A stretch of 64,000 nucleotides of DNA from Psilocybe cubensis (lineage: Eukaryota): assembly GCA_017499595.2 (NCBI GenBank), contig CM039007.1, positions 496,001-560,000 of the forward strand, in the 5' to 3' direction. The translations under genes and the position numbers were made by a program. Under the pieces are notes generated by a model. That model searched no databases and had not been told where the DNA came from. It was given only the letters and a program-made list of their open reading frames with translations. The stretch's first letter is position 1. Every line of letters begins with the position of its first letter. Positions 1-28,845 of the stretch are shown piece by piece.

Positions 1-146
1 ATATCAAATTAAAACGAGAGGCTGTATCTCCACAAGCAGAGACGGAAGCTCCACAGGTAGAAGCGGAAGCCTCTCAACCAACCAAGCGGAAAAAAGCCGT
101 AGCTCCTCGTCGTCCTTCAAAAAAGGCAAAGCAGGATGAATTATGA
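1..146 (+). CDS. 3' end of tyrosine recombinase A (partial)
   Basis: Reads ...IKLKREAVSPQAETEAPQVEAEASQPTKRKKAVAPRRPSKKAKQDEL* (TGA 144-146); same as the end of the complete copy at 12840-16540. Confidence 0.85.
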   Translation, partial: IKLKREAVSPQAETEAPQVEAEASQPTKRKKAVAPRRPSKKAKQDEL

Positions 147-400
147 CTATTAATTGGTATTTTTGACGCTCTTCCTTATGTACTTGACTGTACTAGTTTA
201 TCTTTCATAGTTTGTGTATATTTATGCAGACAGAGTAGCCGCAGACAACCATGATTGTAAAGTTTCAAATAACAAGATAATAATGAATACTTAATGCCGC
301 AGCAGCTATGCAACTTGCTTTCGTTTAAACTCTCCTTTAACTCGTCTTGATTTCAAACACACATCTTGCAATCCAACACAACAATTGCTGCATTTTCAAC

Positions 401-2254
401 ATGGGAATAAATGGACTTTCAAAGGTGCGTACAACGGAATAATGTTAGGTATAGTCTTACAGTGTCAAGATAGGCGATTAAACCCATTGAGGAAAGAGCA
501 TCTCTATACGAGAGTGCCTCTAAGGTTTCTATGGTGGTCCTCTACGAATTCTTTTCATGAAGCTGTGTTACTTTTTAAAGTATCCTGCTATCATGGTCTT
601 TGTGTACGATGGACCGGGACGTCCAGCACTCAAGCGTGGTCGTCGTGTCCAAAATTCTCCACCATTCTGGACAGCTCCCTCTATGGACATAGTACAAGCG
701 TTTGGATATTATGTCCACCAGGTATGCCATAATTTATTCTATTGAATAACACTAGTAGCTAAGTTTTGACGTTGCCTTGTTTAGGCACCCGGTGAGGCTG
801 AGGCCGAGCTTGCTATGCTCAATCAACACGGCCTCCTTGATGCAGTCATCACAAGTGACAGTGATGTTTTTGTGTTTGGAGCGACTACAGTCTATCGCAC
901 GTATGTAGACAATGTTATCAAATTGATTGAATTGGGATTGAAATCATGATAATAGCATCCCGGCCAAAACAAGACGTTTTGAAGATGAAATTGCTGTATA
1001 CACGGCTGAAAACATATCAAATGTTATAGGACTAACAAAGAAAGGTCTCATTTTAGTGGCACTACTTTGTGGAGGAGACTATGACGCAGTAGGACTCGAC
1101 GGATGCGGTCCAGCTACTGCTCTTGGCCTCGCAAAATGCGGATACGGTGAAAGTCTGATTCAAATAGTTCAAACTTTTCACGGAGAGCGATTGACTGCTG
1201 CCATTGCTCAATGGCGTTTGGACCTTCAAAAGGAACTTTTCTCAAACTCCAGTGGACATCTGAGAGGAAAGGAGCGATCACTGGCCAAAAGCATTCCTGA
1301 TTCTTTTCCCAGCCTTGATACACTCTCACTCTACTTGGAACCTGTAGTATCTGCCGGTGCTTCGTCCCATCTTGCTCCTGTTTATGACTTTAGGCACAGA
1401 GAACCATCTTTGAATCGTCTTGTTATGGTGTCATCGACTCATCTGGGGTGGAATACAGAAGAAATTATAAAGGACAAGTTCAAGAGAAATGTATGGGAAG
1501 GTGTCTTTCTGCAGATGCTATACTCGGTGAGTTGTCTATACTACGTTTAAATGCAATCGTAGCTGTTATTCATTGATCTGGCATATTACAGAAGTTTATT
1601 CTTTACGACCACACCCAGCAGATCCTTGCCACACCCAATATTCAAGCACGTTTATTCAACCGTAAAATTGCTAATCGAGCTGGTCGTATGGCACCAAATA
1701 CTTCTAGATACCAAGCCAGATTATTGGTATCGGCACAAAACTTCATCGCATTGATGAACCCCTCATTTCAGTCGTCTACTAATTCGGACACATTTCGAGC
1801 TTGGGTCCATATAGATGCCTTACCGGAAAGATTGCTTCAAGGTTAGTTTTGAGACAAATGGTATTTTCAGCGCTTACATTGACCTCTAGAGCTATCTGGG
1901 GATACTAAAACCACACAAAAAGCTGACAAGTCTCGGGTCATGTTTGTTGAAGGATCTTCTGGAGATAGCAGCCAACAAGCAGCTGCATTTCCAGAGCCAA
2001 CCAAGCATCATCGGGGCGGAATTCTTGAAGCCTTGGACCATATGATGGTAGACCTTGAACATATCAAATTATTGCAGGATATTAATCAATAACGGACTGC
2101 TCAGAAGGGAGAATATGCATCCTCAACTACAAGATCCCTGTTGATTGATCCCAATGTCATCGACTTGACAGAAGATTCTGACCATGAGAAGAGATCTATA
2201 TCTATCCCATCTTCGCTGCCTGAAACTGAATGCTCAATAATTGATTTGACTTAG
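401..2254 (+). pseudogene. XPG/Rad2-family (GEN1/Yen1-like) nuclease of element A, with N-terminal deletion/frameshift
   Basis: Motifs MGINGL, VFVYDGPGRP..KRG, APGEAEAELAMLN, VITSDSDVFVFGA and LLCGGDYD..GLDGCGP (H3TH). Relative to paralogue B, ~154 nt including GVDIS are missing at ~525 and the frame shifts. Ends NVIDLTEDSD...SIIDLT*. Confidence 0.75.
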
Positions 2255-2336
2255 TTATGCTTCCAATATGAAGACACGGACATCATCTTTGCTTGTACCT
2301 AGTCAAAGTAGTATGCATTGACTAATCTACCGTATT

Positions 2337-2400
2337 ACTCTACTGTCTGGTATGCAACTCATGACTTGACTCTACTGTCTGGTATGCAACTCATGACTTG
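2337..2400 (+). repeat. Perfect 32-bp tandem duplication downstream of XPG-A
   Basis: actctactgtctggtatgcaactcatgacttg x2 (2337-2368, 2369-2400). Confidence 0.95.
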
Positions 2401-3957
2401 ATGGTCGGGAAAGGCTTTGATCATATTAATCTGCTTCACTAATCTGCTTTGTTTCGATGAGACTCAATAATCGATGGGCACATTGCAGGGTGCAGGGCAG
2501 AGTGCACAGAAGCAGATGATGATGGAAATGGGATGTGCACACACGGGGTATACTTGCACGACAGAAAAAAGTGGTCCTGCACATAAAGACGGCATTGTAC
2601 AGTACGACTCAACTTAGAATGAGGCCGGTGGGGTATAGCAGTGTAGGAAAGGAAGAGGGTGAAAAACTATGGGCAATCCCAGTGTATTTCCATGCCTGAA
2701 AATTCCTGGGCCACCCATGCGAATTGAGGCACAGTATACCGCAATCTCTCCATCACCAGTCTCCCAGGCATTGATGCCTGAGGGCAGCAATGTATGCGAT
2801 AATATGCGGGGCGGAGCCAACAGTGGGCAGGATGGAGATGTGACAGCGGACGGGGCAGGACGGGGCAGAGGTGATGAGGGGGATACACCACAGAGGAGAA
2901 GAAGGCAGGGGGATCCAACTTGGGTGATAAGAGAAATCGACATACGCACCTAGTGTGTCGATTCCATCAACTGCGCCTTACACCTTGCATGGATCCATCC
3001 CAGCAAAAAAAATTAGAGAGTAGTTAGCACATAAGAAAGGATGAAAGAGAGCCTGCCGGCAACGGTGTATGACCATGCCTGAGGATTCCCAGTGTGCCGG
3101 CAGGCAGAAATAAAAAGAGAGGAAAGAGTGCTCACAGACCTGTATGCTCCCAGCGCGAGCTAAGACCCACGCAATCAAATGTATCTCGCGGGAGGCCACT
3201 GGGATAAACACGGGGGGAAAGTGCAATACAATCACCCATCGCGTGGACATATGTCAGGAAGAACAAAGGAAGAGACTGGACGAGTTTCTGCTTACCTTAC
3301 TCACACACGCAACGCCACCATGCAATGCGGGAGCAAAGTGCGACGCGACACGACGTGATTTGGATGTCGAGTCTCTACCCACAAATACTAGTAAGTTGCT
3401 CACCTTATTTTCTCTTCCTTACCCCACCACCATAGCGCGGGAGATAAGGCCAATATGTACGACGCGACACGACGTGCCGGCCTTCGGGGTGCGTGTTTGG
3501 ATGTCAAGGGCGCCGTGTCGCACTATTTGACGCCCTGCCGCGCGACTTGTGACGCAAGACTGCAGAAACTCCAAAAACAAGGTAGAGTGGCAGAAATAAA
3601 CAAAGAAAATAGATTACTCACGATTGGAGAAGTGTGACGCAAGGGAGAAACACGAATCAACGCGCATTGCATAGAGCTCGCCCCATGCTGAATCGCCTGG
3701 TTGAATCGCATGGTGCCATAATGTCTCTCTCAGCGGTGTCAAATGTACACTCGTACACTCACCTTATTGTCACATTCTATTTCCACCTCTCCTCCACACA
3801 CAATGCCCTTCCTGCAACGCGAAGCGACGCGCAGTCGCGAGAACTCCGCCATCCAAGCGATGCCATGCAAATCGGGTTCGGATGTTCGGATTGGGTCGAG
3901 GGCGGCCGTTCAAGCTACCTATTGAGGCAAAGGACGGCGTCGGGGGTCGAAATTCTT

Positions 3958-4273
3958 GTGACCTGAGCGGTCGAAGTCGCGCCAAACATTGGTGACCTGG
4001 GAGTGACGAGCGGCGAGCGATCGAGGGGCGGGTCCCAGCGAGCGGAATGGAGGTGAAGGGACGAGTAAGAAAACGAAAGGGAAAGTCAACAAAAGCCGCG
4101 GCTGACTCAGCTTAGCTAATCATTCCCGGTGACCCAAAGCGGGTGACCGGGTCCCCAGGTCACAGGGAGTTCGCTATAGAACGAGGAGACCCCAGTGGCC
4201 TTTCTAAGGGTCCGGTCACAAGGGTTTTGTGACCGCCTGCCAAAATTGGCGGGCAGTCACCAGAGTTGGTGAC
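3958..4273. other. Putative recombination (att-like) junction A|B
   Basis: Core GTTC-gctata-GAAC at 4169-4182. GTGAC/GTCAC boxes at 3958, 3992, 4003, 4129, 4143, 4159, 4215, 4229, 4256, 4269. Inverted repeat cggtcacaa-N5-ttgtgaccg at 4213-4235. Confidence 0.8.
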
Positions 4274-5432
4274 TTCGCTAGGGACTCAAAGTGAGCTTTA
4301 TGCCGGTTCGGCGATTGTAAATCAGCCGTGCCTCGCCCTATCTCTACACAAGCTCTGTCAGCGACCACCGCCATCACCATGCCTGTCCCCCCAAACCGTC
4401 CAAGCTCACGTACACAACTGGATTTCTTCGATAAACCGCCGCTCATCAACCCTCAGTTGGCAAGACTCAAGCCAACACCATCTAGACCAACTGCAACACC
4501 GTCTAAACCAACAAGACTGCCAATTCAAACACTAACACGCTTTCAAACGCTAACACGCTCGCCATGCACTCTCAATTCCTATATACCTTCGTTGCTCACA
4601 AGCCCCGCTATAGAGGTGGAGGGTTTGAAACTGCTCACAACGGTGGTCTGAATATAATCAAGTCAGGTACGTTATTCAATATTATGTCGATCCTTCACTT
4701 ATTGATTGTGGAAGCAGCGCAGGCAGCAGTGCTCTTCTTGCACGGCCCTCACTGTCCCACGGACAATCACCGCCCTCTGTGTTTGAGTTGCCATTGCGCA
4801 AACACTGTCTTTTTGGGCATCAGACCCACGGGTGTTCTACTACCCTCGTTCTTGCATCTCAACCATCACATTGTCTTTCCTTGCGCATCTCAAGTCTCAC
4901 GCGCGCTGTGGTGTCTATTTTCTCTCACAAAAGCACACAATCCTGTTGTCGCCATCTTACTGTCTTGTTCAAAGTCGGTTTGGATCACACGTTGGAAAAC
5001 CAGAATTGTCATTGTGAGTATTTCAAGATTCCTCTATTTTTTGACACAGATGCTCAAATGCGACACCAATTAACACCAATAGTTCAGATTGATCACAGCA
5101 CAGATTGCGCGCAGTGTCAATTGAGTACTGCACAGCAGGAACTAGTGGGAATTGAAGGCGGTTGGCATTTTTGGGACGGTCTTGGTTTCTTTTCGTAAAT
5201 CATGTTGCTTTCATTGTATTCTCTACTCACGGGGACCAAATACAACATTTACATCGAATTATAGCTCGGGAATCCAACACAGGCCTCAATTACCATTCAG
5301 GGCATTTGTAATCAACATTCTATGTGCCTTTATTCAACAATGAAACTTGGGCCACCCGTTGAAGCATATAACTTGCATTTTATGTTTTCGCTCTTTCTTA
5401 TTTTTCCTCGCTAACAGCCTGTCTACATACTC

Positions 5433-8400
5433 ATGGATGGTACTTCTTTTGAGCCTGATCCCCTACTTTCTGAACACAATGATTTGCTTTATCCATCCCG
5501 GACCTTGGATGGCACAGTTGTCTCAACTCTTGAAGAGTACTCTGCAGCACTGTATGGTTTCTTTTTCTCAACCAAATTTGACTTGTTGATGTTTCTTTTA
5601 GTGACACTATACGACGGAAAGAGCGTTTGAGGGAAGCATGCAGCAACCTCCATCTTTCAGTCCCTAAAAGTGCTAATTTAGAGCGCCTTCGTTCAGCTCT
5701 CAAATTATACTGGTCGGTATATTTTTCAGTTTGTGGTAGTTGATCCTTTTTATTGACTTCTGTTTGATAGGTTTCCGCTGGATAGCAGTGCCGATACTGC
5801 ACCTACTACTATCAATACTGTGAATGAAGCCACCGAAAATCAAGCTGACATTGAAGATCAACATCTTTCCGCACAATCCCACAATATCATTGACGATGGA
5901 GCTCTTATTTCACACTTTTCGGTTGAAGGTGCAGCAGCTGATGAAATACTAGGATACGACGAGGACAATGAGTTACTTGATGAGGATGATGAATTTGGAG
6001 AAGATCTCGACAACAATGAAGACGACATCATGGATACTAGCGATGACTTTGAACAATTTGTTACTCAGACACGGGTTGACGAGGCTAAAAGATCGGAGAA
6101 AAATCGACGAGCAGGTGGCGTAAAAACACAGTCGGCAGTTGTAAGAGACTGGAAGGTATGGTATCATGTTTTGCTAAAGCTGTACTCAGCTCATGTATTC
6201 TAGATGTTTTGTCGCCAAGCATTGGACAAGGGTGAAATTCAAGATGACATAGTTGACTGTCATCATCTGCTCCTGTATATTCGACATTCAGCAGAGCGTC
6301 CAAAGCGTACTCGCAAGGGTCTTGATATTCCGGGTACTTATCTTGGTGCTGTAAGTTTCACCAGTAACAGATCGTGAACTGTCACTCATACTATCTAGTC
6401 CCAGTTGAAGAAACTCTACTTTGGTGCATTACGGATTCGAAAAATGCAAGAGGCCCTCGATCCAACACTTGAAAAAACTCGGCCCGCTAAGTCTATTCAC
6501 GTTTGGGACTGTATAAAAGGAAGGATGAATGAAGCCTTAAATCGTAGTCGAAAGTGAGTGTTATTTTTTGTATAATCTTGACAGAGTTCTTATCCAGGAA
6601 TCAGTGGCTTAATTCCAGGAGAGGATGCTCCTGATATTGTTGCCAACACGTTTCTGGCAAGTGTAACCGAAGAGCAAATGGCCAAAATAGGTGGAGGGTT
6701 TTTGATGCATCGGGAATGTGAGTTTTTCCATCCAAGACAATTCACTTTGGGTTGAGCTTGATGAGATCTTCCAAGTGCGATCTGTCATTAATGGACATCT
6801 TGCATGGGCAGCCCAAAATGCTTCTGGGAATCGAGGAGACGACTTTCGTGCACTCAAACTTGCGGAACTACAACCATATGTTTTTCTTCACCCCAATAAA
6901 GAAACTGCAGTTGAATGTGTCCTGGGACTTCAAGGCGAAGAGAAAGCTGCTGCTAACCGTGGATTGCGTACAAAAGTTAATCCGGTTTACACAGTATTTA
7001 TTGCACATAAAGATCCAACAATATGCCCGCTTGGTGCCTTTGCGTTTTATCATCATTTCATCCATGATGTAAAGAAGCTTACCGAAGAACTTGATGTTGA
7101 TTGGTCAATCAACAAAAGTTGGAGACAAGTCCGTGTTTTGCATGGCAAGACTTCTCCAACAACCCCTTACCACGAACAGAGTTTGTATAACCTTTACGTC
7201 AAGGCCTTCTCACAGGCCAATTTTATTTCAAAAATCAAGGCTCACCTTCCTCGCCATATTCTTGGTTATAGCCAAGAGAAGATGGGGTAGGTGAACTTGG
7301 TTGAACGTATATCTCAAATCATGATTGTTAACTTGTCAAATCAATTAGCGTCGATGGGGTACACACATCAAGATTGGGATGGGTTCGTGGTGAAACATAC
7401 TTTGATACATACGCTCCAGCAATTCCAAAAGAGGTATTTTTGTTATGACATGTTATGGTTTTTTCTCTTACACCGTTTTCTAGGCCGTTCTCGGTGCTCA
7501 TGGATACAAAACACATGAAGTATATGACCCTCTGTGGCGACGTGTCCATGTTCCAGAGGCATTTTTAAACTTGGTATGCCCTATCGCCGAGGATATTCAT
7601 GCCAAAATTGTGGGAAGAGCCAATTTGTCGGGTGCAGCCAATTATTGGGCAATGGTAATATCGCTCCGCCCATATTTATTCCAGGTTTGCTCTTTGTTAT
7701 CTTTGCTACTCATCACTCATATATATTGTAGTGTGGTGCTGCAATTTACCAGAAGTATCCTGAATCCGCATTATTTCGGCTTCCAGCTTTAGCAAATCCC
7801 CAGGTCCAACACTGGATGAAAACCGAGTATCCAACAAGCCTTGCTCACTTACAAGCTAACGCAGGAAGTACAGTGGATTTGGAACGTATACAAAACAACC
7901 TTCTTCGCCTATCTCTTGAAGAAATGAGGGCGCTTTTAGCAACCCAGGCAGCAGAATTGAAGGAAATGCGTCTTTTAATTCAGCGCCGTACTGATGTTCT
8001 TTCTCCAACCAAGGGATTCTCAAATTTGTCATATCAACATAGTTTAAACGTCTCCAAAGGTATCTTGACTTAACTTGCTATTGATATATTTCTGTGAATT
8101 GATTTTTCAACTATAGTCCCGCAACCTGTATTTACGCTAGCTGTGCCAGAGAGTCCACTGGCTAACAAATCTGCCGGTCATAGTGCTACTAAAAATAGCG
8201 ATGATACGGGAATTTATGTTTTGAATGCTCCAAATGATAGCAAACAACCGGGAAGCCCACTTCGCGCCTTTGCAAATGGATCACCAAAGGTTTCTTCTGA
8301 ATCCCGTTCGCGGACACAAGTTGATCTTGTATTGCCCCATGTTGACGCTTTCTCAAACCCTGGTGTGCCGTCTTATGTTTCTAACACTACTATTGTCTGA

Positions 8401-9150
8401 ATGCTAATAAATCTATGGCCACACATTAGGTGGACCACAACTGTTTTGGCCGCCTGTTCTTGGTCAGAAATCAGTGACGTGGGAGCAAGTCTTTAGACTT
8501 ATCAAGCGACCCGAACTGTTATGGGATGCATGGTGTCCATCAAAGACCCTTAACAAATATACACTCAATGAACAGTGGACATGTTACAATTCTGGCGAGC
8601 CGGTTTTTAATGCTTCGGGTACTCAGACAGGTATCAAGCCTCCACTTCAGCAAGTTGAGCTGCACTTTCAGTCAGCATGGCGAACTAAACCAGCAGTATG
8701 GTTTAATTATCTTTTTCGAGCTGTATACATGGTTTAATCCTTTCCTTTTGTATACTAGGCACGTAAGGCGTGGCAGCGCTTTCGCGAAATTCCGGAGTTT
8801 ATTCATTCCGAGTCTACTTTACGTGGTGTATCCCCACAAATTGTAATCGAAGAGCTTGAAAAATCTGCTACAGGGGGCAATGGCAGAGTGAAGGGACTCT
8901 CAGCAATCACTGATGAAATCTATGCACAACGCATAGCAAAGGCGCAAGCATCAAAAGATGTACGCATATTTTAAAACAAACTTCTGACCACCTCTAAATT
9001 CAATTTTAGGTAATATCTGCTAGTGTTCAAAGCACAAACTCCAATAGCACTCAAAGTGTATCTACAGAGCCGCCCATCGGTAGAAAAAAACGGCAAGCAC
9101 CAGTTGCTCCAAGGAGGCGCACAAAAAATTTAGTTGAACCATCAGCATAG
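5433..9150 (+). CDS. Crypton-type (Ndc10-like) tyrosine recombinase B with C-terminal GCR1_C-like domain, multi-exon
   Basis: GNRGDDFRALKL (R 6832), QGEEKA, CPLGAFAFY, AHLPRH (H 7243, R 7252), SRLGW (W 7380), YFDTYAP (Y 7410). C-terminal TLNEQW...KPPLQQVELHFQSAWR...WQRFREIPEFI...IVIEELE. Short GT-AG introns (e.g. 5552-5601); stop TAG 9148-9150. The start codon is the best guess. Confidence 0.85.
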
Positions 9151-9332
9151 TGTAATCGATGACAGTGTAACCTTACTTAGTAGTATTGAGCCCGCACGTA
9201 ACTTAGTTTGAGAAGTCTCATAATACAATGGTCATACTCTTATATCAACAATCCAATCTGAGTTATTTGACATCTCTTTTATCCATACACACAACACAGC
9301 GGCAAATCACATTGACAAGTTGATAATTGACA

Positions 9333-11148
9333 ATGGGAATTAATGGGTTATGGCCAGTAAGAACCATTCAATGTCATGTCTGAGTCTTGGTGTGCTGAGT
9401 TGGCTACTACAGACAATCAAAGAAGCGGAAAGCAGGATCTCAATTCTCTCTACTGCTCTTGACCATCGAGAGAGTTCCGGAAAAATTGCGATGAAGCTTG
9501 GGGTTGATATAAGGTATTTCATGGTTTAAAATTTTGATCTATTAGTCTTAATTAGAATCAAAAGCACACTTATGAGCGAGTGTGTTGCAGCACTACAGGG
9601 ACCAACAATCAGTGGCCAATTCTATGGCGGTGCACTGCACATTCTATTCATGAAAATGTGTGAATTCATCAAATATCCCTTGACTCTAGTATTTGTTTAT
9701 GATGGCCCTGGTCGACCTCTCATAAAACGCGGGACTAATGTTCGTGTAAACCAAAGCCCATTTTGGACCAATCCATCTAAAGATATCATTCGGGCATTCG
9801 GATATCACATACACCAGGTATTGCATGCTGTCTGTGTAATTGTATTTAATATTAACTCCAAAATAGGCGCCCGGAGAGGCTGAAGCGGAATTAGCTATGC
9901 TAAACCGTAGAGGATTGATTGATGGAATCATCACTAACGATAGTGATGTTTTTGTCTTTGGCGCACAAACAGTATACCGCACGTAAGAACATTCTTCAAA
10001 CTTGCTCAGTATACTGGATATTGAACATCAAATTTTATTAGCATTCCAACCAAGGAAAGACATTTTGAAGATGAAATGATTGCCTACACGTACTCGCATC
10101 TTTTGGATTTAGGATTAACATCCGGTGGACTTGTTTTATTTGCCCTAGTCTGTGGTGGCGATTACGATTGCGCGGGTCTCAAAGGATTTGGGCCGTCCCA
10201 TGCACATGCTCTTGCATCGTGCGGATTTGGGGATCAGCTTGTCAAAGCATTCCAGACGTTAAGCGGTGTTGCTCTTCAGGATTTTCTCAACCACTGGCGC
10301 ACAGAAATCAAGCATGAATTATTGACAAATTCCCATGGCCATCTACATAGCCGTTCACCTGTCCTGTCCGAACGTCTCACAGAATCTTTCCCCGACCTTG
10401 ACATTCTTGATCTTTACTTGAATCCACTAACTTCTGCCCCAGGTCAAAAATTTCAACCGTGGATTTTACAAGAGCCATCAGTTCCCGGCCTAATTGATGT
10501 TTCGTCGACACACTTGGGATGGCGATCCGAGGATGTACTCAGGAAAAGGTTCAAAGCCAAGGTTTGGGAGGGTATTTTTCTTCAAATGCTTTATTCTGTA
10601 AGTCATCTATTCACATTTACGAGTGCAAAACAAGGTCTCATGCTGCTTCTAGCCCCTCATATTATACGACTCTTCCCGGAAACTTTTCGCTACGCCAAAT
10701 ACCCAAGCTTTGGTTCTGACCTGTAAATTGCTCAAGCGCAAAGGCTGTGTACAACCCAACGCTTCAGAGTTACATGCCCGATTGCTTGTGTCGGCTCAGA
10801 ACTTCGTCACATTGATGGGTTTCCACTCAAACCAATCCAATGAGGTTGACCAATTTCGAGTCTGGGTTCCTCGGAGTATTTTGCCCCAGGAGTTACATAC
10901 TACAGTCGAAGGTAGTTTTATCTAACTGACCTACACATTGTATACTACTAACCACTTGCTCAGGTTCTCAATCCGTAACAAGAATGAAGATAAATCCCAG
11001 TCGAAGGCGCAGACCCAGCAGCAGCAGCTCCACGATGGAAGAACAAAACAATTCCATTCGGCATTTTGAGGTCATTGATTTGACTGACGAGACCGAGGTC
11101 TCGAACATTCAATCTACATCCAATGTTATTGATCTGACTCAGGATTAA
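9333..11148 (+). CDS. XPG/Rad2-family PIN + H3TH nuclease (GEN1/Yen1-like) of element B, multi-exon, apparently intact
   Basis: MGINGLWP, LGVDIS, VFVYDGPGRPLIKRG, APGEAEAELAMLN, IITNDSDVFVFGA, LVCGGDYDCAGLKGFGP; ends FEVIDLTDETEVSNIQSTSNVIDLTQD*. Confidence 0.88.
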
Positions 11149-12202: not shown

Positions 12203-12540
12203 GTGACCGGAGCGGAGGTCGACCAGCGAAAAGCTGGTGACCGGAGAGTGACGAGCGGCGAGCGATCGAGGGCGGGTCCCAGCGCGATGAGTTAGCAGGA
12301 GGCGGGAATGAAGGGGAGTGAGGCAGAATGAAGGTGGAGGTCAACGAAAGATCAGATTCGCGGGAGTATTACATAATCATTATCTAAGCAGTCCGGTGAC
12401 TCGCCGCGGTGACGGCGTCCCCAAGTCACAGGGAGTTCGCTATAGAACAAGGAGACCCCCGTGGCATTCCTTGGGGGTAGGTCACAGACGTTCTGTGACC
12501 TACCGCACAAATTTGGCCCTGGGTCACAGAGCTGGGTGAC
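12203..12540. other. Putative recombination (att-like) junction B|A
   Basis: Core at 12435-12448. Boxes at 12203, 12237, 12248, 12396, 12409, 12425, 12481, 12495, 12523, 12536. Perfect 13-bp-arm inverted repeat ggtaggtcacaga-cgt-tctgtgacctacc at 12476-12504. Confidence 0.8.
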
Positions 12541-16540: not shown

Positions 16541-16794
16541 CTATTAATTGGTATTTTTGACGCTCTTCCTTATGTACTTGACTGTACTAGTTTATCTTTC
16601 ATAGTTTGTGTATATTTATGCAGACAGAGTAGCCGCAGACAACCATGATTGTAAAGTTTCAAATAACAAGATAATAATGAATACTTAATGCCGCAGCAGC
16701 TATGCAACTTGCTTTCGTTTAAACTCTCCTTTAACTCGTCTTGATTTCAAACACACATCTTGCAATCCAACACAACAATTGCTGCATTTTCAAC

Positions 16795-18648
16795 ATGGGA
16801 ATAAATGGACTTTCAAAGGTGCGTACAACGGAATAATGTTAGGTATAGTCTTACAGTGTCAAGATAGGCGATTAAACCCATTGAGGAAAGAGCATCTCTA
16901 TACGAGAGTGCCTCTAAGGTTTCTATGGTGGTCCTCTACGAATTCTTTTCATGAAGCTGTGTTACTTTTTAAAGTATCCTGCTATCATGGTCTTTGTGTA
17001 CGATGGACCGGGACGTCCAGCACTCAAGCGTGGTCGTCGTGTCCAAAATTCTCCACCATTCTGGACAGCTCCCTCTATGGACATAGTACAAGCGTTTGGA
17101 TATTATGTCCACCAGGTATGCCATAATTTATTCTATTGAATAACACTAGTAGCTAAGTTTTGACGTTGCCTTGTTTAGGCACCCGGTGAGGCTGAGGCCG
17201 AGCTTGCTATGCTCAATCAACACGGCCTCCTTGATGCAGTCATCACAAGTGACAGTGATGTTTTTGTGTTTGGAGCGACTACAGTCTATCGCACGTATGT
17301 AGACAATGTTATCAAATTGATTGAATTGGGATTGAAATCATGATAATAGCATCCCGGCCAAAACAAGACGTTTTGAAGATGAAATTGCTGTATACACGGC
17401 TGAAAACATATCAAATGTTATAGGACTAACAAAGAAAGGTCTCATTTTAGTGGCACTACTTTGTGGAGGAGACTATGACGCAGTAGGACTCGACGGATGC
17501 GGTCCAGCTACTGCTCTTGGCCTCGCAAAATGCGGATACGGTGAAAGTCTGATTCAAATAGTTCAAACTTTTCACGGAGAGCGATTGACTGCTGCCATTG
17601 CTCAATGGCGTTTGGACCTTCAAAAGGAACTTTTCTCAAACTCCAGTGGACATCTGAGAGGAAAGGAGCGATCACTGGCCAAAAGCATTCCTGATTCTTT
17701 TCCCAGCCTTGATACACTCTCACTCTACTTGGAACCTGTAGTATCTGCCGGTGCTTCGTCCCATCTTGCTCCTGTTTATGACTTTAGGCACAGAGAACCA
17801 TCTTTGAATCGTCTTGTTATGGTGTCATCGACTCATCTGGGGTGGAATACAGAAGAAATTATAAAGGACAAGTTCAAGAGAAATGTATGGGAAGGTGTCT
17901 TTCTGCAGATGCTATACTCGGTGAGTTGTCTATACTACGTTTAAATGCAATCGTAGCTGTTATTCATTGATCTGGCATATTACAGAAGTTTATTCTTTAC
18001 GACCACACCCAGCAGATCCTTGCCACACCCAATATTCAAGCACGTTTATTCAACCGTAAAATTGCTAATCGAGCTGGTCGTATGGCACCAAATACTTCTA
18101 GATACCAAGCCAGATTATTGGTATCGGCACAAAACTTCATCGCATTGATGAACCCCTCATTTCAGTCGTCTACTAATTCGGACACATTTCGAGCTTGGGT
18201 CCATATAGATGCCTTACCGGAAAGATTGCTTCAAGGTTAGTTTTGAGACAAATGGTATTTTCAGCGCTTACATTGACCTCTAGAGCTATCTGGGGATACT
18301 AAAACCACACAAAAAGCTGACAAGTCTCGGGTCATGTTTGTTGAAGGATCTTCTGGAGATAGCAGCCAACAAGCAGCTGCATTTCCAGAGCCAACCAAGC
18401 ATCATCGGGGCGGAATTCTTGAAGCCTTGGACCATATGATGGTAGACCTTGAACATATCAAATTATTGCAGGATATTAATCAATAACGGACTGCTCAGAA
18501 GGGAGAATATGCATCCTCAACTACAAGATCCCTGTTGATTGATCCCAATGTCATCGACTTGACAGAAGATTCTGACCATGAGAAGAGATCTATATCTATC
18601 CCATCTTCGCTGCCTGAAACTGAATGCTCAATAATTGATTTGACTTAG
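16795..18648 (+). pseudogene. XPG/GEN1-like nuclease of element A copy 2 (same lesion as 401-2254)
   Basis: Repeat of 401-2254 at +16394. Confidence 0.75.
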
Positions 18649-18730
18649 TTATGCTTCCAATATGAAGACACGGACATCATCTTTGCTTGTACCTAGTCAA
18701 AGTAGTATGCATTGACTAATCTACCGTATT

Positions 18731-18794
18731 ACTCTACTGTCTGGTATGCAACTCATGACTTGACTCTACTGTCTGGTATGCAACTCATGACTTG
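18731..18794 (+). repeat. 32-bp tandem duplication (second copy)
   Basis: Repeat of 2337-2400 at +16394. Confidence 0.95.
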
Positions 18795-20351
18795 ATGGTC
18801 GGGAAAGGCTTTGATCATATTAATCTGCTTCACTAATCTGCTTTGTTTCGATGAGACTCAATAATCGATGGGCACATTGCAGGGTGCAGGGCAGAGTGCA
18901 CAGAAGCAGATGATGATGGAAATGGGATGTGCACACACGGGGTATACTTGCACGACAGAAAAAAGTGGTCCTGCACATAAAGACGGCATTGTACAGTACG
19001 ACTCAACTTAGAATGAGGCCGGTGGGGTATAGCAGTGTAGGAAAGGAAGAGGGTGAAAAACTATGGGCAATCCCAGTGTATTTCCATGCCTGAAAATTCC
19101 TGGGCCACCCATGCGAATTGAGGCACAGTATACCGCAATCTCTCCATCACCAGTCTCCCAGGCATTGATGCCTGAGGGCAGCAATGTATGCGATAATATG
19201 CGGGGCGGAGCCAACAGTGGGCAGGATGGAGATGTGACAGCGGACGGGGCAGGACGGGGCAGAGGTGATGAGGGGGATACACCACAGAGGAGAAGAAGGC
19301 AGGGGGATCCAACTTGGGTGATAAGAGAAATCGACATACGCACCTAGTGTGTCGATTCCATCAACTGCGCCTTACACCTTGCATGGATCCATCCCAGCAA
19401 AAAAAATTAGAGAGTAGTTAGCACATAAGAAAGGATGAAAGAGAGCCTGCCGGCAACGGTGTATGACCATGCCTGAGGATTCCCAGTGTGCCGGCAGGCA
19501 GAAATAAAAAGAGAGGAAAGAGTGCTCACAGACCTGTATGCTCCCAGCGCGAGCTAAGACCCACGCAATCAAATGTATCTCGCGGGAGGCCACTGGGATA
19601 AACACGGGGGGAAAGTGCAATACAATCACCCATCGCGTGGACATATGTCAGGAAGAACAAAGGAAGAGACTGGACGAGTTTCTGCTTACCTTACTCACAC
19701 ACGCAACGCCACCATGCAATGCGGGAGCAAAGTGCGACGCGACACGACGTGATTTGGATGTCGAGTCTCTACCCACAAATACTAGTAAGTTGCTCACCTT
19801 ATTTTCTCTTCCTTACCCCACCACCATAGCGCGGGAGATAAGGCCAATATGTACGACGCGACACGACGTGCCGGCCTTCGGGGTGCGTGTTTGGATGTCA
19901 AGGGCGCCGTGTCGCACTATTTGACGCCCTGCCGCGCGACTTGTGACGCAAGACTGCAGAAACTCCAAAAACAAGGTAGAGTGGCAGAAATAAACAAAGA
20001 AAATAGATTACTCACGATTGGAGAAGTGTGACGCAAGGGAGAAACACGAATCAACGCGCATTGCATAGAGCTCGCCCCATGCTGAATCGCCTGGTTGAAT
20101 CGCATGGTGCCATAATGTCTCTCTCAGCGGTGTCAAATGTACACTCGTACACTCACCTTATTGTCACATTCTATTTCCACCTCTCCTCCACACACAATGC
20201 CCTTCCTGCAACGCGAAGCGACGCGCAGTCGCGAGAACTCCGCCATCCAAGCGATGCCATGCAAATCGGGTTCGGATGTTCGGATTGGGTCGAGGGCGGC
20301 CGTTCAAGCTACCTATTGAGGCAAAGGACGGCGTCGGGGGTCGAAATTCTT

Positions 20352-20667
20352 GTGACCTGAGCGGTCGAAGTCGCGCCAAACATTGGTGACCTGGGAGTGA
20401 CGAGCGGCGAGCGATCGAGGGGCGGGTCCCAGCGAGCGGAATGGAGGTGAAGGGACGAGTAAGAAAACGAAAGGGAAAGTCAACAAAAGCCGCGGCTGAC
20501 TCAGCTTAGCTAATCATTCCCGGTGACCCAAAGCGGGTGACCGGGTCCCCAGGTCACAGGGAGTTCGCTATAGAACGAGGAGACCCCAGTGGCCTTTCTA
20601 AGGGTCCGGTCACAAGGGTTTTGTGACCGCCTGCCAAAATTGGCGGGCAGTCACCAGAGTTGGTGAC
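20352..20667. other. Putative recombination junction A|B (second copy)
   Basis: Core GTTCGCTATAGAAC at 20563-20576; same as the 4169 junction. Confidence 0.8.
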
Positions 20668-21826
20668 TTCGCTAGGGACTCAAAGTGAGCTTTATGCCGG
20701 TTCGGCGATTGTAAATCAGCCGTGCCTCGCCCTATCTCTACACAAGCTCTGTCAGCGACCACCGCCATCACCATGCCTGTCCCCCCAAACCGTCCAAGCT
20801 CACGTACACAACTGGATTTCTTCGATAAACCGCCGCTCATCAACCCTCAGTTGGCAAGACTCAAGCCAACACCATCTAGACCAACTGCAACACCGTCTAA
20901 ACCAACAAGACTGCCAATTCAAACACTAACACGCTTTCAAACGCTAACACGCTCGCCATGCACTCTCAATTCCTATATACCTTCGTTGCTCACAAGCCCC
21001 GCTATAGAGGTGGAGGGTTTGAAACTGCTCACAACGGTGGTCTGAATATAATCAAGTCAGGTACGTTATTCAATATTATGTCGATCCTTCACTTATTGAT
21101 TGTGGAAGCAGCGCAGGCAGCAGTGCTCTTCTTGCACGGCCCTCACTGTCCCACGGACAATCACCGCCCTCTGTGTTTGAGTTGCCATTGCGCAAACACT
21201 GTCTTTTTGGGCATCAGACCCACGGGTGTTCTACTACCCTCGTTCTTGCATCTCAACCATCACATTGTCTTTCCTTGCGCATCTCAAGTCTCACGCGCGC
21301 TGTGGTGTCTATTTTCTCTCACAAAAGCACACAATCCTGTTGTCGCCATCTTACTGTCTTGTTCAAAGTCGGTTTGGATCACACGTTGGAAAACCAGAAT
21401 TGTCATTGTGAGTATTTCAAGATTCCTCTATTTTTTGACACAGATGCTCAAATGCGACACCAATTAACACCAATAGTTCAGATTGATCACAGCACAGATT
21501 GCGCGCAGTGTCAATTGAGTACTGCACAGCAGGAACTAGTGGGAATTGAAGGCGGTTGGCATTTTTGGGACGGTCTTGGTTTCTTTTCGTAAATCATGTT
21601 GCTTTCATTGTATTCTCTACTCACGGGGACCAAATACAACATTTACATCGAATTATAGCTCGGGAATCCAACACAGGCCTCAATTACCATTCAGGGCATT
21701 TGTAATCAACATTCTATGTGCCTTTATTCAACAATGAAACTTGGGCCACCCGTTGAAGCATATAACTTGCATTTTATGTTTTCGCTCTTTCTTATTTTTC
21801 CTCGCTAACAGCCTGTCTACATACTC

Positions 21827-24800
21827 ATGGATGGTACTTCTTTTGAGCCTGATCCCCTACTTTCTGAACACAATGATTTGCTTTATCCATCCCGGACCTT
21901 GGATGGCACAGTTGTCTCAACTCTTGAAGAGTACTCTGCAGCACTGTATGGTTTCTTTTTCTCAACCAAATTTGACTTGTTGATGTTTCTTTTAGTGACA
22001 CTATACGACGGAAAGAGCGTTTGAGGGAAGCATGCAGCAACCTCCATCTTTCAGTCCCTAAAAGTGCTAATTTAGAGCGCCTTCGTTCAGCTCTCAAATT
22101 ATACTGGTCGGTATATTTTTCAGTTTGTGGTAGTTGATCCTTTTTATTGACTTCTGTTTGATAGGTTTCCGCTGGATAGCAGTGCCGATACTGCACCTAC
22201 TACTATCAATACTGTGAATGAAGCCACCGAAAATCAAGCTGACATTGAAGATCAACATCTTTCCGCACAATCCCACAATATCATTGACGATGGAGCTCTT
22301 ATTTCACACTTTTCGGTTGAAGGTGCAGCAGCTGATGAAATACTAGGATACGACGAGGACAATGAGTTACTTGATGAGGATGATGAATTTGGAGAAGATC
22401 TCGACAACAATGAAGACGACATCATGGATACTAGCGATGACTTTGAACAATTTGTTACTCAGACACGGGTTGACGAGGCTAAAAGATCGGAGAAAAATCG
22501 ACGAGCAGGTGGCGTAAAAACACAGTCGGCAGTTGTAAGAGACTGGAAGGTATGGTATCATGTTTTGCTAAAGCTGTACTCAGCTCATGTATTCTAGATG
22601 TTTTGTCGCCAAGCATTGGACAAGGGTGAAATTCAAGATGACATAGTTGACTGTCATCATCTGCTCCTGTATATTCGACATTCAGCAGAGCGTCCAAAGC
22701 GTACTCGCAAGGGTCTTGATATTCCGGGTACTTATCTTGGTGCTGTAAGTTTCACCAGTAACAGATCGTGAACTGTCACTCATACTATCTAGTCCCAGTT
22801 GAAGAAACTCTACTTTGGTGCATTACGGATTCGAAAAATGCAAGAGGCCCTCGATCCAACACTTGAAAAAACTCGGCCCGCTAAGTCTATTCACGTTTGG
22901 GACTGTATAAAAGGAAGGATGAATGAAGCCTTAAATCGTAGTCGAAAGTGAGTGTTATTTTTTGTATAATCTTGACAGAGTTCTTATCCAGGAATCAGTG
23001 GCTTAATTCCAGGAGAGGATGCTCCTGATATTGTTGCCAACACGTTTCTGGCAAGTGTAACCGAAGAGCAAATGGCCAAAATAGGTGGAGGGTTTTTGAT
23101 GCATCGGGAATGTGAGTTTTTCCATCCAAGACAATTCACTTTGGGTTGAGCTTGATGAGATCTTCCAAGTGCGATCTGTCATTAATGGACATCTTGCATG
23201 GGCAGCCCAAAATGCTTCTGGGAATCGAGGAGACGACTTTCGTGCACTCAAACTTGCGGAACTACAACCATATGTTTTTCTTCACCCCAATAAAGAAACT
23301 GCAGTTGAATGTGTCCTGGGACTTCAAGGCGAAGAGAAAGCTGCTGCTAACCGTGGATTGCGTACAAAAGTTAATCCGGTTTACACAGTATTTATTGCAC
23401 ATAAAGATCCAACAATATGCCCGCTTGGTGCCTTTGCGTTTTATCATCATTTCATCCATGATGTAAAGAAGCTTACCGAAGAACTTGATGTTGATTGGTC
23501 AATCAACAAAAGTTGGAGACAAGTCCGTGTTTTGCATGGCAAGACTTCTCCAACAACCCCTTACCACGAACAGAGTTTGTATAACCTTTACGTCAAGGCC
23601 TTCTCACAGGCCAATTTTATTTCAAAAATCAAGGCTCACCTTCCTCGCCATATTCTTGGTTATAGCCAAGAGAAGATGGGGTAGGTGAACTTGGTTGAAC
23701 GTATATCTCAAATCATGATTGTTAACTTGTCAAATCAATTAGCGTCGATGGGGTACACACATCAAGATTGGGATGGGTTCGTGGTGAAACATACTTTGAT
23801 ACATACGCTCCAGCAATTCCAAAAGAGGTATTTTTGTTATGACATGTTATGGTTTTTTCTCTTACACCGTTTTCTAGGCCGTTCTCGGTGCTCATGGATA
23901 CAAAACACATGAAGTATATGACCCTCTGTGGCGACGTGTCCATGTTCCAGAGGCATTTTTAAACTTGGTATGCCCTATCGCCGAGGATATTCATGCCAAA
24001 ATTGTGGGAAGAGCCAATTTGTCGGGTGCAGCCAATTATTGGGCAATGGTAATATCGCTCCGCCCATATTTATTCCAGGTTTGCTCTTTGTTATCTTTGC
24101 TACTCATCACTCATATATATTGTAGTGTGGTGCTGCAATTTACCAGAAGTATCCTGAATCCGCATTATTTCGGCTTCCAGCTTTAGCAAATCCCCAGGTC
24201 CAACACTGGATGAAAACCGAGTATCCAACAAGCCTTGCTCACTTACAAGCTAACGCAGGAAGTACAGTGGATTTGGAACGTATACAAAACAACCTTCTTC
24301 GCCTATCTCTTGAAGAAATGAGGGCGCTTTTAGCAACCCAGGCAGCAGAATTGAAGGAAATGCGTCTTTTAATTCAGCGCCGTACTGATGTTCTTTCTCC
24401 AACCAAGGGATTCTCAAATTTGTCATATCAACATAGTTTAAACGTCTCCAAAGGTATCTTGACTTAACTTGCTATTGATATATTTCTGTGAATTGATTTT
24501 TCAACTATAGTCCCGCAACCTGTATTTACGCTAGCTGTGCCAGAGAGTCCACTGGCTAACAAATCTGCCGGTCATAGTGCTACTAAAAATAGCGATGATA
24601 CGGGAATTTATGTTTTGAATGCTCCAAATGATAGCAAACAACCGGGAAGCCCACTTCGCGCCTTTGCAAATGGATCACCAAAGGTTTCTTCTGAATCCCG
24701 TTCGCGGACACAAGTTGATCTTGTATTGCCCCATGTTGACGCTTTCTCAAACCCTGGTGTGCCGTCTTATGTTTCTAACACTACTATTGTCTGAATGCTA

Positions 24801-25544
24801 ATAAATCTATGGCCACACATTAGGTGGACCACAACTGTTTTGGCCGCCTGTTCTTGGTCAGAAATCAGTGACGTGGGAGCAAGTCTTTAGACTTATCAAG
24901 CGACCCGAACTGTTATGGGATGCATGGTGTCCATCAAAGACCCTTAACAAATATACACTCAATGAACAGTGGACATGTTACAATTCTGGCGAGCCGGTTT
25001 TTAATGCTTCGGGTACTCAGACAGGTATCAAGCCTCCACTTCAGCAAGTTGAGCTGCACTTTCAGTCAGCATGGCGAACTAAACCAGCAGTATGGTTTAA
25101 TTATCTTTTTCGAGCTGTATACATGGTTTAATCCTTTCCTTTTGTATACTAGGCACGTAAGGCGTGGCAGCGCTTTCGCGAAATTCCGGAGTTTATTCAT
25201 TCCGAGTCTACTTTACGTGGTGTATCCCCACAAATTGTAATCGAAGAGCTTGAAAAATCTGCTACAGGGGGCAATGGCAGAGTGAAGGGACTCTCAGCAA
25301 TCACTGATGAAATCTATGCACAACGCATAGCAAAGGCGCAAGCATCAAAAGATGTACGCATATTTTAAAACAAACTTCTGACCACCTCTAAATTCAATTT
25401 TAGGTAATATCTGCTAGTGTTCAAAGCACAAACTCCAATAGCACTCAAAGTGTATCTACAGAGCCGCCCATCGGTAGAAAAAAACGGCAAGCACCAGTTG
25501 CTCCAAGGAGGCGCACAAAAAATTTAGTTGAACCATCAGCATAG
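21827..25544 (+). CDS. Crypton-type tyrosine recombinase B, copy 2
   Basis: Repeat of 5433-9150 at +16394. Confidence 0.85.
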
Positions 25545-25726
25545 TGTAATCGATGACAGTGTAACCTTACTTAGTAGTATTGAGCCCGCACGTAACTTAG
25601 TTTGAGAAGTCTCATAATACAATGGTCATACTCTTATATCAACAATCCAATCTGAGTTATTTGACATCTCTTTTATCCATACACACAACACAGCGGCAAA
25701 TCACATTGACAAGTTGATAATTGACA

Positions 25727-27542
25727 ATGGGAATTAATGGGTTATGGCCAGTAAGAACCATTCAATGTCATGTCTGAGTCTTGGTGTGCTGAGTTGGCTA
25801 CTACAGACAATCAAAGAAGCGGAAAGCAGGATCTCAATTCTCTCTACTGCTCTTGACCATCGAGAGAGTTCCGGAAAAATTGCGATGAAGCTTGGGGTTG
25901 ATATAAGGTATTTCATGGTTTAAAATTTTGATCTATTAGTCTTAATTAGAATCAAAAGCACACTTATGAGCGAGTGTGTTGCAGCACTACAGGGACCAAC
26001 AATCAGTGGCCAATTCTATGGCGGTGCACTGCACATTCTATTCATGAAAATGTGTGAATTCATCAAATATCCCTTGACTCTAGTATTTGTTTATGATGGC
26101 CCTGGTCGACCTCTCATAAAACGCGGGACTAATGTTCGTGTAAACCAAAGCCCATTTTGGACCAATCCATCTAAAGATATCATTCGGGCATTCGGATATC
26201 ACATACACCAGGTATTGCATGCTGTCTGTGTAATTGTATTTAATATTAACTCCAAAATAGGCGCCCGGAGAGGCTGAAGCGGAATTAGCTATGCTAAACC
26301 GTAGAGGATTGATTGATGGAATCATCACTAACGATAGTGATGTTTTTGTCTTTGGCGCACAAACAGTATACCGCACGTAAGAACATTCTTCAAACTTGCT
26401 CAGTATACTGGATATTGAACATCAAATTTTATTAGCATTCCAACCAAGGAAAGACATTTTGAAGATGAAATGATTGCCTACACGTACTCGCATCTTTTGG
26501 ATTTAGGATTAACATCCGGTGGACTTGTTTTATTTGCCCTAGTCTGTGGTGGCGATTACGATTGCGCGGGTCTCAAAGGATTTGGGCCGTCCCATGCACA
26601 TGCTCTTGCATCGTGCGGATTTGGGGATCAGCTTGTCAAAGCATTCCAGACGTTAAGCGGTGTTGCTCTTCAGGATTTTCTCAACCACTGGCGCACAGAA
26701 ATCAAGCATGAATTATTGACAAATTCCCATGGCCATCTACATAGCCGTTCACCTGTCCTGTCCGAACGTCTCACAGAATCTTTCCCCGACCTTGACATTC
26801 TTGATCTTTACTTGAATCCACTAACTTCTGCCCCAGGTCAAAAATTTCAACCGTGGATTTTACAAGAGCCATCAGTTCCCGGCCTAATTGATGTTTCGTC
26901 GACACACTTGGGATGGCGATCCGAGGATGTACTCAGGAAAAGGTTCAAAGCCAAGGTTTGGGAGGGTATTTTTCTTCAAATGCTTTATTCTGTAAGTCAT
27001 CTATTCACATTTACGAGTGCAAAACAAGGTCTCATGCTGCTTCTAGCCCCTCATATTATACGACTCTTCCCGGAAACTTTTCGCTACGCCAAATACCCAA
27101 GCTTTGGTTCTGACCTGTAAATTGCTCAAGCGCAAAGGCTGTGTACAACCCAACGCTTCAGAGTTACATGCCCGATTGCTTGTGTCGGCTCAGAACTTCG
27201 TCACATTGATGGGTTTCCACTCAAACCAATCCAATGAGGTTGACCAATTTCGAGTCTGGGTTCCTCGGAGTATTTTGCCCCAGGAGTTACATACTACAGT
27301 CGAAGGTAGTTTTATCTAACTGACCTACACATTGTATACTACTAACCACTTGCTCAGGTTCTCAATCCGTAACAAGAATGAAGATAAATCCCAGTCGAAG
27401 GCGCAGACCCAGCAGCAGCAGCTCCACGATGGAAGAACAAAACAATTCCATTCGGCATTTTGAGGTCATTGATTTGACTGACGAGACCGAGGTCTCGAAC
27501 ATTCAATCTACATCCAATGTTATTGATCTGACTCAGGATTAA
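25727..27542 (+). CDS. XPG/GEN1-like nuclease B, copy 2
   Basis: Repeat of 9333-11148 at +16394. Confidence 0.88.
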
Positions 27543-28596
27543 TTCTGGCTTCAACAGACGTAGCAAGTATGTAACAGCGTAGAAAAGTAACAAAGAGTAG
27601 TGATTAATGTACACAAGGAATTATTTGATTATTTGAAAGCGAGGTCTGCAGTGGTACAGCACAGAATTTCTACCAGATAAACGCTAGCGGTGAACGTCTG
27701 AGCATTGGGGAGGGGAAGGGGGTGTAGGACTGTTAACTCACAAAAACAATATGCCACTCTACTGCTCAGAAACAACGCCACACCTAAAAGCTAACCTCAC
27801 CGCCAATCACGGTTGATGGCTGGTAACAACTGGCGTGCAGGCATTATAGAGTCTTCTTTCAGGGATAGACAAATGTGACTCCTCCGCATCCATGATGGCG
27901 GCAGCGTTGGAGTTGTTCAGCATCTCGTGTAGGAGCACAAGCTGGCGATGGCAGAGATTGTGGCGATCCGTGGACGCGCGCCACGACGTAGATCTCTCTA
28001 AGTGGCAACAAAATTCTTCAACTATATTAAACCAGAAAAAGAAAGAAAAACGAACGCACGCTCAACATTGTTCGCAAACTCTCGCACCATACCCAAATCC
28101 CTCCATAGCCACACAAACACACCACCCAGAAACATAAAGAATTTGAAAGCAAGGTCTTCTGTAACACATGGATATGATAAATGTTAGCGGCACATGGGAG
28201 GAAGAGGAAACTCACAAAAAATAATACAAACAATGCCGCCCAAAAGCTAACCCCCACAAACATCCTTGGGGTCAAGCCTACAATGCAGCGGAGGCGTACA
28301 TTAGCCAGTGGGCGAGAAGATATGGGATTAACATCGTTAGATTGTCAGCAGCATTAGTAAAAAGTATACAGTGGAGTTAAAAGAACACCGGGTGGTAGGC
28401 AGTGAGTGTATGACCATGCCTGATCATTCCTCAGCTCCCATCCACCAGTGCACGGAGAAGGGGGGTAGAGCGAGCAAAAAAATGAACAGAGAACACTCAC
28501 GTTTTGCGCAGATCGGCCGCTCGAATCCAACAAGGAAAGCGGGTGCCCGTGAGCACACGTATTTGGGAATTGACGGCGTTGGGGGACGAAATTGTT

Positions 28597-28845
28597 GTGA
28601 CCGGAGCGGAGGTCGACCAGCGAAAAGCTGGTGACCGGAGAGTGACGAGCGGCGAGCGATCGAGGGCGGGTCCCAGCGCGATGAGTTAGCAGGAGGCGGG
28701 AATGAAGGGGAGTGAGGCAGAATGAAGGTGGAGGTCAACGAAAGATCAGATTCGCGGGAGTATTACATAATCATTATCTAAGCAGTCCGGTGACTCGCCG
28801 CGGTGACGGCGTCCCCAAGTCACAGGGAGTTCGCTATAGAACAAG
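28597..28845. other. Right border of the array (attR-like half junction with host DNA)
   Basis: Left-hand boxes and core are present. After gaacaag the sequence is agagaaaatg rather than gagacccc, and the right-hand GTCAC/GTGAC palindromes are absent. Confidence 0.85.

Follow-up and report, generated by a model that had tools for sequence, protein, structure and literature searches.

A 64,000-nt stretch of the Psilocybe cubensis genome (contig CM039007.1, positions 496,001 to 560,000; hereafter the window) opens with a head-to-tail array in which two different elements, A and B, alternate and share one short sequence at every junction. Both are predicted from their coding sequences to be elements of about 8.2 kb that carry, on the same strand, a tyrosine recombinase gene of the CryptonF type with a putative fused GCR1_C-like part and a gene for an XPG-family nuclease resembling GEN1/Yen1. 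It is rather probable that the locus is a hetero-array, of uncertain copy number, of two anciently diverged CryptonF-type families, built by recombinase-driven insertion at the ends of resident copies.

Array layout and element ends

A 24-nt core, GTCACAGGGAGTTCGCTATAGAAC, is found at positions 4159, 12425, 20553 and 28819, at spacings of 8266, 8128 and 8266. No further site with up to three mismatches occurs in the 64 kb, and each of 100 shuffles gave 0 matches. Counted between core starts, B occupies 4159-12424 and 20553-28818, and A occupies 12425-20552, its 3' 4.2 kb being present also at 1-4158. Core positions and spacings bear out an earlier interpretation made without database searches (the sequence-only reading), according to which A and B alternate head to tail and share one core per junction. 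The same reading had found no difference between the repeated A+B dimers, and a direct comparison of 1-12451 with 16395-28845 showed them to be equal base for base. The first mismatch falls at offset 12451, giving 12,451 identical bases at a period of 16,394. Self-BLAST of the window aligned 1-12455 with 16395-28850 at 99.992% identity with one gap. The window opens within A, so that about 1.76 dimer units are visible and the left end of the array lies outside it.

A and B are colinear on the plus strand and diverged. BLASTN aligns them in 13 segments at 66-92% identity, and their translated segments are 38-83% identical. Over 544 ungapped codons, divergence at synonymous sites (pS) is 0.785, which is saturated, and at nonsynonymous sites (pN) 0.172. 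These values imply that both families are old and that both have been kept, in both of their genes, under purifying selection. The conservation of the non-coding ends contrasts with this saturation of synonymous sites: A and B are 73-83% identical over about 250 nt to the left of the core and about 120 nt to its right, and the core itself matches at 24 of 24 positions. The right end (about 250 nt) contains direct GTGAC motifs and terminates in ...GTCACAGGGAGTTCGCTAT-AGAAC. The left end (about 120 nt) contains GTCACA/TGTGAC palindromes after the core, including a perfect 13-nt inverted repeat in A; inverted repeats at the element ends are short ones only. Within 300 nt of the four junctions lie 15 of the 21 plus-strand GGTGAC sites of the window. 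The GTGAC/GTCAC clusters are likely candidates for recombinase binding sites.

The same ends are recognisable in solitary relatives from soil metagenomes, which are 6.6-9.7 kb long and bounded by an imperfect 5-nt direct repeat, (A/G)GAAC. Six of them (L008, L017, L027, L028, L034 and L040) show the motif GGTCAC..CGC..(G/T)AGAAC downstream of their recombinase/XPG genes, followed by unrelated DNA; in L008, this motif matches the window core at 18 of 24 positions. The left ends, obtained from pairwise homology of the relatives (a slash marks the element boundary), read GGAAC/AGGGAGACCCC in L034, GGAAC/AAGCAGACCCC in L008, GGAAC/GAGCAGACCCC in L017 and GGACC/ATGGAGACCCC in L040. In the window, B starts as AGAAC/GAGGAGACCCC and A as AGAAC/AAGGAGACCCC.

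Sequencing data delimit the pentamer as well. Seven of ten runs, from three studies, contain the stretch, and positions 12425-32000 were compared with the raw Illumina runs X9 and X10 and the contig sets X1 and X5, none of which stands for the window's strain. In these four runs, foreign sequence joined on the left ends before 20572, and foreign sequence joined on the right does not start until after 20576, so that AGAAC is bracketed from both sides. Judged by the solitary relatives, each array junction consists of a full right end, a single AGAAC and a full left end, as would be expected where the two ends of a circular element meet. The ends of these relatives coincide exactly with the array junctions, so that the natural reading is a circle that integrated where a resident element ends. 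The sequence-only reading had noted that a target-site duplication (TSD) is lacking. This statement needs a gloss: one AGAAC pentamer stands at every junction and closes the right end, as a short terminal direct repeat of the Crypton type. An Rfam scan of the whole window and a tRNA scan gave no matches, so that the core does not belong to any known RNA gene or tRNA attachment (att) site.

Recombinase, nuclease and their relatives

The best protein matches of the elements come from P. cubensis. The B genes are represented by P0001, a public P. cubensis protein of 1448 aa, which is 99% identical to the B product over a 194-aa query exon and covers the B coding regions in tblastn. The Pfam family NDC10_II, whose fold Ndc10/Cbf2 took over from CryptonF recombinases, matched open reading frames (ORFs) of the window at E 3.5e-9 and 1.6e-6, above the Pfam cut-off, and was also found in the full proteins P0001 and P0003, the latter being the recombinase product of A. 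In an alignment of 20 sequences, the R of NRGDD (R43) is invariant, and conservation is 90% or more for H180 and R183 (HLPRH) and for a W and a Y farther on. R43, H180, R183 and the Y are candidate catalytic residues, presumably representing the R-H-R-Y set. A PDB search with the recombinase exon returned chance-level hemagglutinin matches alone (E at least 0.07), which were discarded.

The second gene belongs to the XPG family. P0001 contains an XPG_I domain (Pfam, E 8e-19), and its nuclease part matches the PDB entries 5cnq/6grb at E 7e-33 over 274 residues, with VFDGP, APGEAEAE, DSD and GGDY aligned. With these acidic motifs aligned, the two entries outscore the Rad2, XPG, FEN1 and EXO1 chains. 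They are titled "Nuclease-like protein", and we take them to be GEN1, the Holliday-junction resolvase of Chaetomium thermophilum. The element nuclease is predicted from this match to be a GEN1/Yen1-like XPG nuclease. Single nuclease exons gave no Pfam match, the family being visible only with the full protein P0001 and with PDB sequences. In A, the true start of the nuclease gene probably lies somewhat upstream of 16921, where its conserved exons begin. When 27 ORF pieces of A and B were scanned together with P0001 and P0003, NDC10_II, XPG_I and GCR1_C were the Pfam families found at E <0.001, all others having E of at least 0.0087. No further family, including any cargo in the non-conserved parts of A and B, was thus detected at E <0.001, and the scans of these ORF pieces, P0001 and P0003 gave no match to a reverse transcriptase or RNase H.

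Relatives are widespread among mushrooms. A search with the recombinase exon yielded 131 proteins at E ≤0.001 among 618 candidates. The 120 listed are nearly all from Agaricales, including Mycena, Favolaschia, Panaeolus, Gymnopilus, Pleurotus, Lentinula and Schizophyllum, and 11 of these 120 also carry XPG_I within one gene model. In 10 of the 120, PF00867 and PF16787 stand together in a fused model, and splicing of the two genes into one is conceivable. A scan of JGI metagenomes with the alignment found 45 loci, from soil. Sixteen of these loci are at least 5 kb long, and in six of the sixteen (L008, L040, L034, L002, L027 and L017) the recombinase gene is followed by the XPG gene on one strand. 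This order implies that the two-gene module is a conserved element type and not a local accident.

Individual relatives show further arrangements. In L023, a reversed XPG gene (4-817, minus strand) lies 2.2 kb upstream of a recombinase gene (3059-6188, plus strand), that is, two elements stand head to head, and a GTCACA..TGTGAC palindrome occurs at 2209. In L040, about 3 kb of extra DNA (6607-9609) separates the recombinase and XPG genes by comparison with L034; it may be cargo or a nested insertion. P0021 and P0022 of Mycena venus, which have consecutive locus tags, are fused recombinase-XPG models with 87-100% identity over the aligned segments. To judge from these two models, there are hints of side-by-side copies in another genus.

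Assembly of the array and competing explanations

In the compared runs, A and B are separable. A has a depth of 0 at 95% likeness in X9 and X10 (a 30-nt repeat excepted) and is absent from X5, so that it is missing at this likeness from three runs in which B and the flank are present; several different neighbours break at 20572/20576. Such insertion polymorphism indicates that the elements are mobile. Mean B depth is about 46 in X9 and about 56 in X10, with flank depths of about 34 and 29; the resulting ratios of 1.35 and 1.9 are upper bounds, as diverged flank reads were possibly dropped. In X5, the word depth of B is 24.3. Compared with the window, B shows 0-1 differences in each of the four runs and the flank about 1%, which suggests that B spread recently or inserted repeatedly in a site-specific manner. 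To the left of B, the neighbour with most support in X9 and X10 (47 and 53 reads, respectively) is the end of a third, A-like relative, so that hetero-junctions recur.

The following course of events is proposed. Strand exchange would take place within the pentamer (A/G)GAAC. A circle derived from one family would recombine with a resident element of the other, at the terminal pentamer of the latter, giving an internal junction identical to the circle junction, with a right end, one AGAAC and a left end. Because internal junctions hold both half-sites, they may be better substrates than ordinary GGAAC targets. Full junctions would then make three events more likely, namely another insertion, the release of monomer or dimer circles, and unequal exchange, with A-B-A-B as the outcome. 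The dimer could be duplicated by the recombinase, either through a dimer circle or through exchange between junctions of sister chromatids, or by unequal crossover of the host, routes that would look the same in sequence. The element nuclease might resolve the Holliday junction of the recombinase reaction, which is speculation.

Several observations weigh against this proposal. A 16.4-kb unit duplicated without one difference is also expected from over-extension by the assembler, and the reads compared come from related runs. In X1, word depth is about 10.9 for A, about 17-20 for B and about 8.4-10.7 for the flank (A:B:flank about 1:2:1). Furthermore, in a 3596-nt contig of X1, 806 nt of other DNA abut B at 20572, which gives B a second, different left neighbour. 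X1 fits flank-B-A-B-flank, or A-B plus a B elsewhere, rather than two A+B units. Read depth had been named in the sequence-only reading as a check on copy number; in this related run, it agrees better with B-A-B than with two dimers. No B/B or A/A joint, as monomer circles or homo-arrays would produce, is among the joints listed for X9 and X10. Among the metagenome relatives, three loci extend for at least 4.5 kb downstream of XPG and five for at least 4.8 kb upstream, and none of either set has a head-to-tail neighbour; the test is a weak one because metagenome contigs break at repeats. With 0 of 8 usable flanks showing such a neighbour, arrays are not the rule and seem to be occasional, not obligatory. 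Finally, the GCR1_C match in P0001 is weak (E 4.3e-4, 21 bits against a Pfam cut-off of 23); PF12550 is annotated in 7 of the 120 listed recombinase relatives.

Taken together, the lack of any difference in 12,451 bases, the depths in X1 (which is among the two runs that cover the stretch best) and its 806-nt joint to other DNA could mean that the strain has fewer units, flank-B-A-B-flank or a single A+B, and that the assembler circled through the repeat once more. Such over-extension is conceivable but doubtful. In a 1535-nt contig, the flank of X1 departs from the window at 14 letters and by 11 gaps, so that X1 may be a different strain. The contig on which P0003 is recorded measures 3.08 Mb, a length that suggests long-read assembly, and long-read assemblers more often collapse exact repeats than expand them. 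Even if the assembler did err, the A/B and B/A junctions stand. We lean slightly towards a real, recent duplication of the dimer in the source strain. The recombinase may also have made the hetero-junctions only, the dimer then being duplicated by homologous recombination of the host through unequal sister-chromatid exchange between identical copies of B or of A. Identical direct copies of 8 kb are good substrates for unequal exchange, and the product would be the same in sequence as that of recombinase-made amplification; none of the data points against this route. It requires, however, a prior B-A-B or A-B-A, itself the result of two insertions, and is regarded as rather unlikely.

The recurrent joint between an A-like end and the start of B in X9 and X10, as the best-supported left junction of B there, could also suggest that A+B is one composite transposon of 16.4 kb that inserted beside itself. 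This is very improbable: X9, X10 and X5 contain B without A at 95% likeness, the relatives are solitary units with the same ends, and the internal junction holds complete ends. Crypton-derived host genes exist (Ndc10/Cbf2 and Gcr1, according to the accessible part of PMC3212892), and an immobile, tandemly duplicated host gene cluster of Crypton origin might be considered on this basis. It is hardly credible in view of the presence/absence variation among the runs, the many contexts that break at the same two bases, the ends conserved across relatives with unrelated flanks and the retained candidate catalytic residues.

Recombinase-driven insertion at resident ends thus remains the preferred explanation of the hetero-array. 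The idea in the sequence-only reading that a circle of one element entered the site of the other is strengthened by the agreement between solitary ends and junctions and by the three runs with B but no A at 95% likeness; the recent amplification of the dimer, which it also assumed, was neither confirmed nor refuted. A more far-reaching possibility, which is put forward tentatively and probably claims too much, is that this Crypton lineage has made full recombination sites out of its head-to-tail junctions and that arrays act as launch pads. The recombinase would excise and re-insert monomer circles and mixed-family multimer circles, and the GEN1-like nuclease would cut the Holliday junction such that a copy is left behind, which amounts to replicative transposition. 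If true, this would account for the increase in Crypton copy number in spite of clean excision, and for strain differences in array length.

Known systems, neighbouring DNA and significance

In CryptonF DNA transposons, reportedly described by Goodwin et al. in 2003, one protein combines a tyrosine recombinase with a C-terminal DNA-binding domain of the GCR1_C type; in P0001, the match to this domain stays below the Pfam cut-off. The elements of the window resemble them in their tyrosine recombinase, in their fungal host and in being DNA transposons with no reverse transcriptase match. They also lack terminal inverted repeats (TIRs) and long terminal repeats (LTRs): AGAAC closes A and B at four junctions as well as six relatives, and GGAAC (3 loci) or GGACC (1 locus) precedes the left ends. 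Cryptons have short (4-6 bp) direct repeats at both termini, which are the substrates of recombination (Kojima & Jurka 2011, PMC3212892, in the part accessible). The differences are the XPG nuclease as a second gene, conserved ends of about 370 nt with GTGAC clusters and the head-to-tail array of two families. Second genes of Cryptons in print encode a DDE transposase, a C48 peptidase or a helix-turn-helix (HTH) protein, an XPG nuclease not being among them in the accessible text of PMC13465315, and no report of an XPG accessory gene in Cryptons was found in the literature. Likewise, no report of head-to-tail Crypton arrays was found, including in the accessible parts of PMC3212892 and PMC8969392; the supplementary termini of Kojima & Jurka 2011 may bear on this point. 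CryptonF-1_cRei of Chlamydomonas ends in CACCG and targets CAYCG, and its activity was observed in mutation-accumulation lines (PMC9977147, accessible part). It shares with A and B a pentamer end and a near-identical target pentamer, here AGAAC and GGAAC/GGACC. Its activity was seen directly, whereas that of A and B is deduced, and the accessible text mentions neither arrays nor a nuclease gene for it.

Bacterial integrative elements are the classic case of tandem accretion at one att site: a circle inserts beside a resident relative, and single or composite circles can excise. The direct arrays and the recombination site at every junction are common to both systems. The present case differs in its eukaryotic host, the lack of a tRNA-gene target, the pentamer crossover and the intron-bearing genes. 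With GEN1/Yen1, the element nuclease shares its best match of solved structure and the aligned acidic motifs. It differs in that its gene sits inside a transposon with many copies across Agaricales.

Two other kinds of mobile elements were considered and rejected. Starships, which occur in Pezizomycotina, are giant elements with tens to hundreds of kb of cargo and a DUF3435 "captain" at the 5' end. Here, the recombinase matches NDC10_II and not DUF3435, and the elements, of 8.1-8.3 kb, are from an agaric and have no cargo that was found. DIRS/Ngaro retrotransposons combine reverse transcriptase/RNase H with a recombinase and have split or inverted terminal repeats; neither these enzymes nor such repeats were found in A and B. 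Starships are fungal elements whose tyrosine recombinase is related to that of Cryptons, and both nested and tandem insertions have been reported for them (PMC11162782, accessible part). The sequence-only reading had called such an array unusual for a eukaryotic DNA transposon, which it is, but in view of these tandem insertions it is not without parallel.

Features of the array and its right flank. Each element is counted as beginning directly behind one AGAAC and ending with the following one; these limits were set by analogy with solitary relatives.
Feature	Positions	Strand	Basis
Partial element A (3' 4.2 kb)	1..4182	+	identical to 16395-20576
Element B, copy 1 (8266 bp)	4183..12448	+	core spacing, A/B comparison
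Element A, full copy (8128 bp)	12449..20576	+	core spacing, A/B comparison
Element B, copy 2	20577..28842	+	identical to copy 1
Shared 24-nt core: 19 nt of right end + AGAAC (4178-4182)	4159..4182, 12425-12448, 20553-20576, 28819-28842	+	
Conserved non-coding end region with GTGAC/GTCAC clusters	3933..4275, 12178-12542, 20327-20669, left half 28572-28842	+	
B recombinase gene with introns, CryptonF-type tyrosine recombinase	5433..8962, copy 2 21827-25356	+	tblastn with P0001 residues 1-960; Pfam
B nuclease gene, XPG family, predicted GEN1/Yen1-like	9413..11145, copy 2 25807-27539	+	tblastn with P0001 residues 960-1448
A recombinase gene, product P0003 (1012 aa, NDC10_II at residues 378-650)	12840..16540	+	annotated product; Pfam
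A recombinase gene, last 47 codons, in partial A	3-143	+	protein comparison
A nuclease gene, XPG family, conserved exons	16921..18228; partial A ~527-1834	+	segments 47-82% identical to B exons
Right flank of array, unrelated to A/B, ordinary genes beyond	28843..29150	.	comparison, ORF scan

Within the elements, two small repeats were noticed. The right end of B contains two copies of a 34-nt subrepeat with a GTGAC motif (12193-12246, equal to 28587-28640), and a joint that steps back 34 nt (28630 to 28597) in 9 reads of X9 and 10 of X10 indicates a third unit in some copies. A 30-nt piece in the non-coding part of A (19073-19104) is the sole part of A covered by X9 and X10. Loose ends flank it left and right in each of the four runs, and it probably stems from another dispersed repeat, of which it would be a short fragment.

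The DNA to the right of the array varies between strains. In X9, 27 reads, together with contigs of X1, enter other sequence after 29151, and one X1 contig does so after 28988, which is a structural strain difference 150-300 nt from the array. Two direct copies with 80% identity over about 900 nt follow at 29675-30568 and 31173-32070, their ORFs having no Pfam match; reads contain joints that go back about 1.45 kb (32000/31997 to 30545). Farther on lie ordinary host genes, namely ABC-transporter exons (ABC_tran, ABC_membrane) at 37304-41238 on the minus strand and 55517-56014 on the plus strand. A tandem pair of MFS-transporter paralogues, 76% identical, occupies 56347-58209 and 59682-61559 on the minus strand.

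Few eukaryotic DNA transposons are as poorly understood as Cryptons, whose activity was first observed only in 2023 (PMC9977147, in its accessible part). If the second unit should prove to be an assembly artefact, the locus would be a useful warning for repeat annotation. Together with its relatives, it supplies base-exact ends, a target pentamer and a candidate binding motif for this group. It also adds a conserved accessory nuclease, predicted to be of the Holliday-junction-resolvase type, which is spread over many agaric genera and soil metagenomes. The array, with complete junctions between two presumably cross-compatible families, would be a natural substrate for studying circle excision, re-insertion at an element's own ends and amplification as in bacterial integrative elements.

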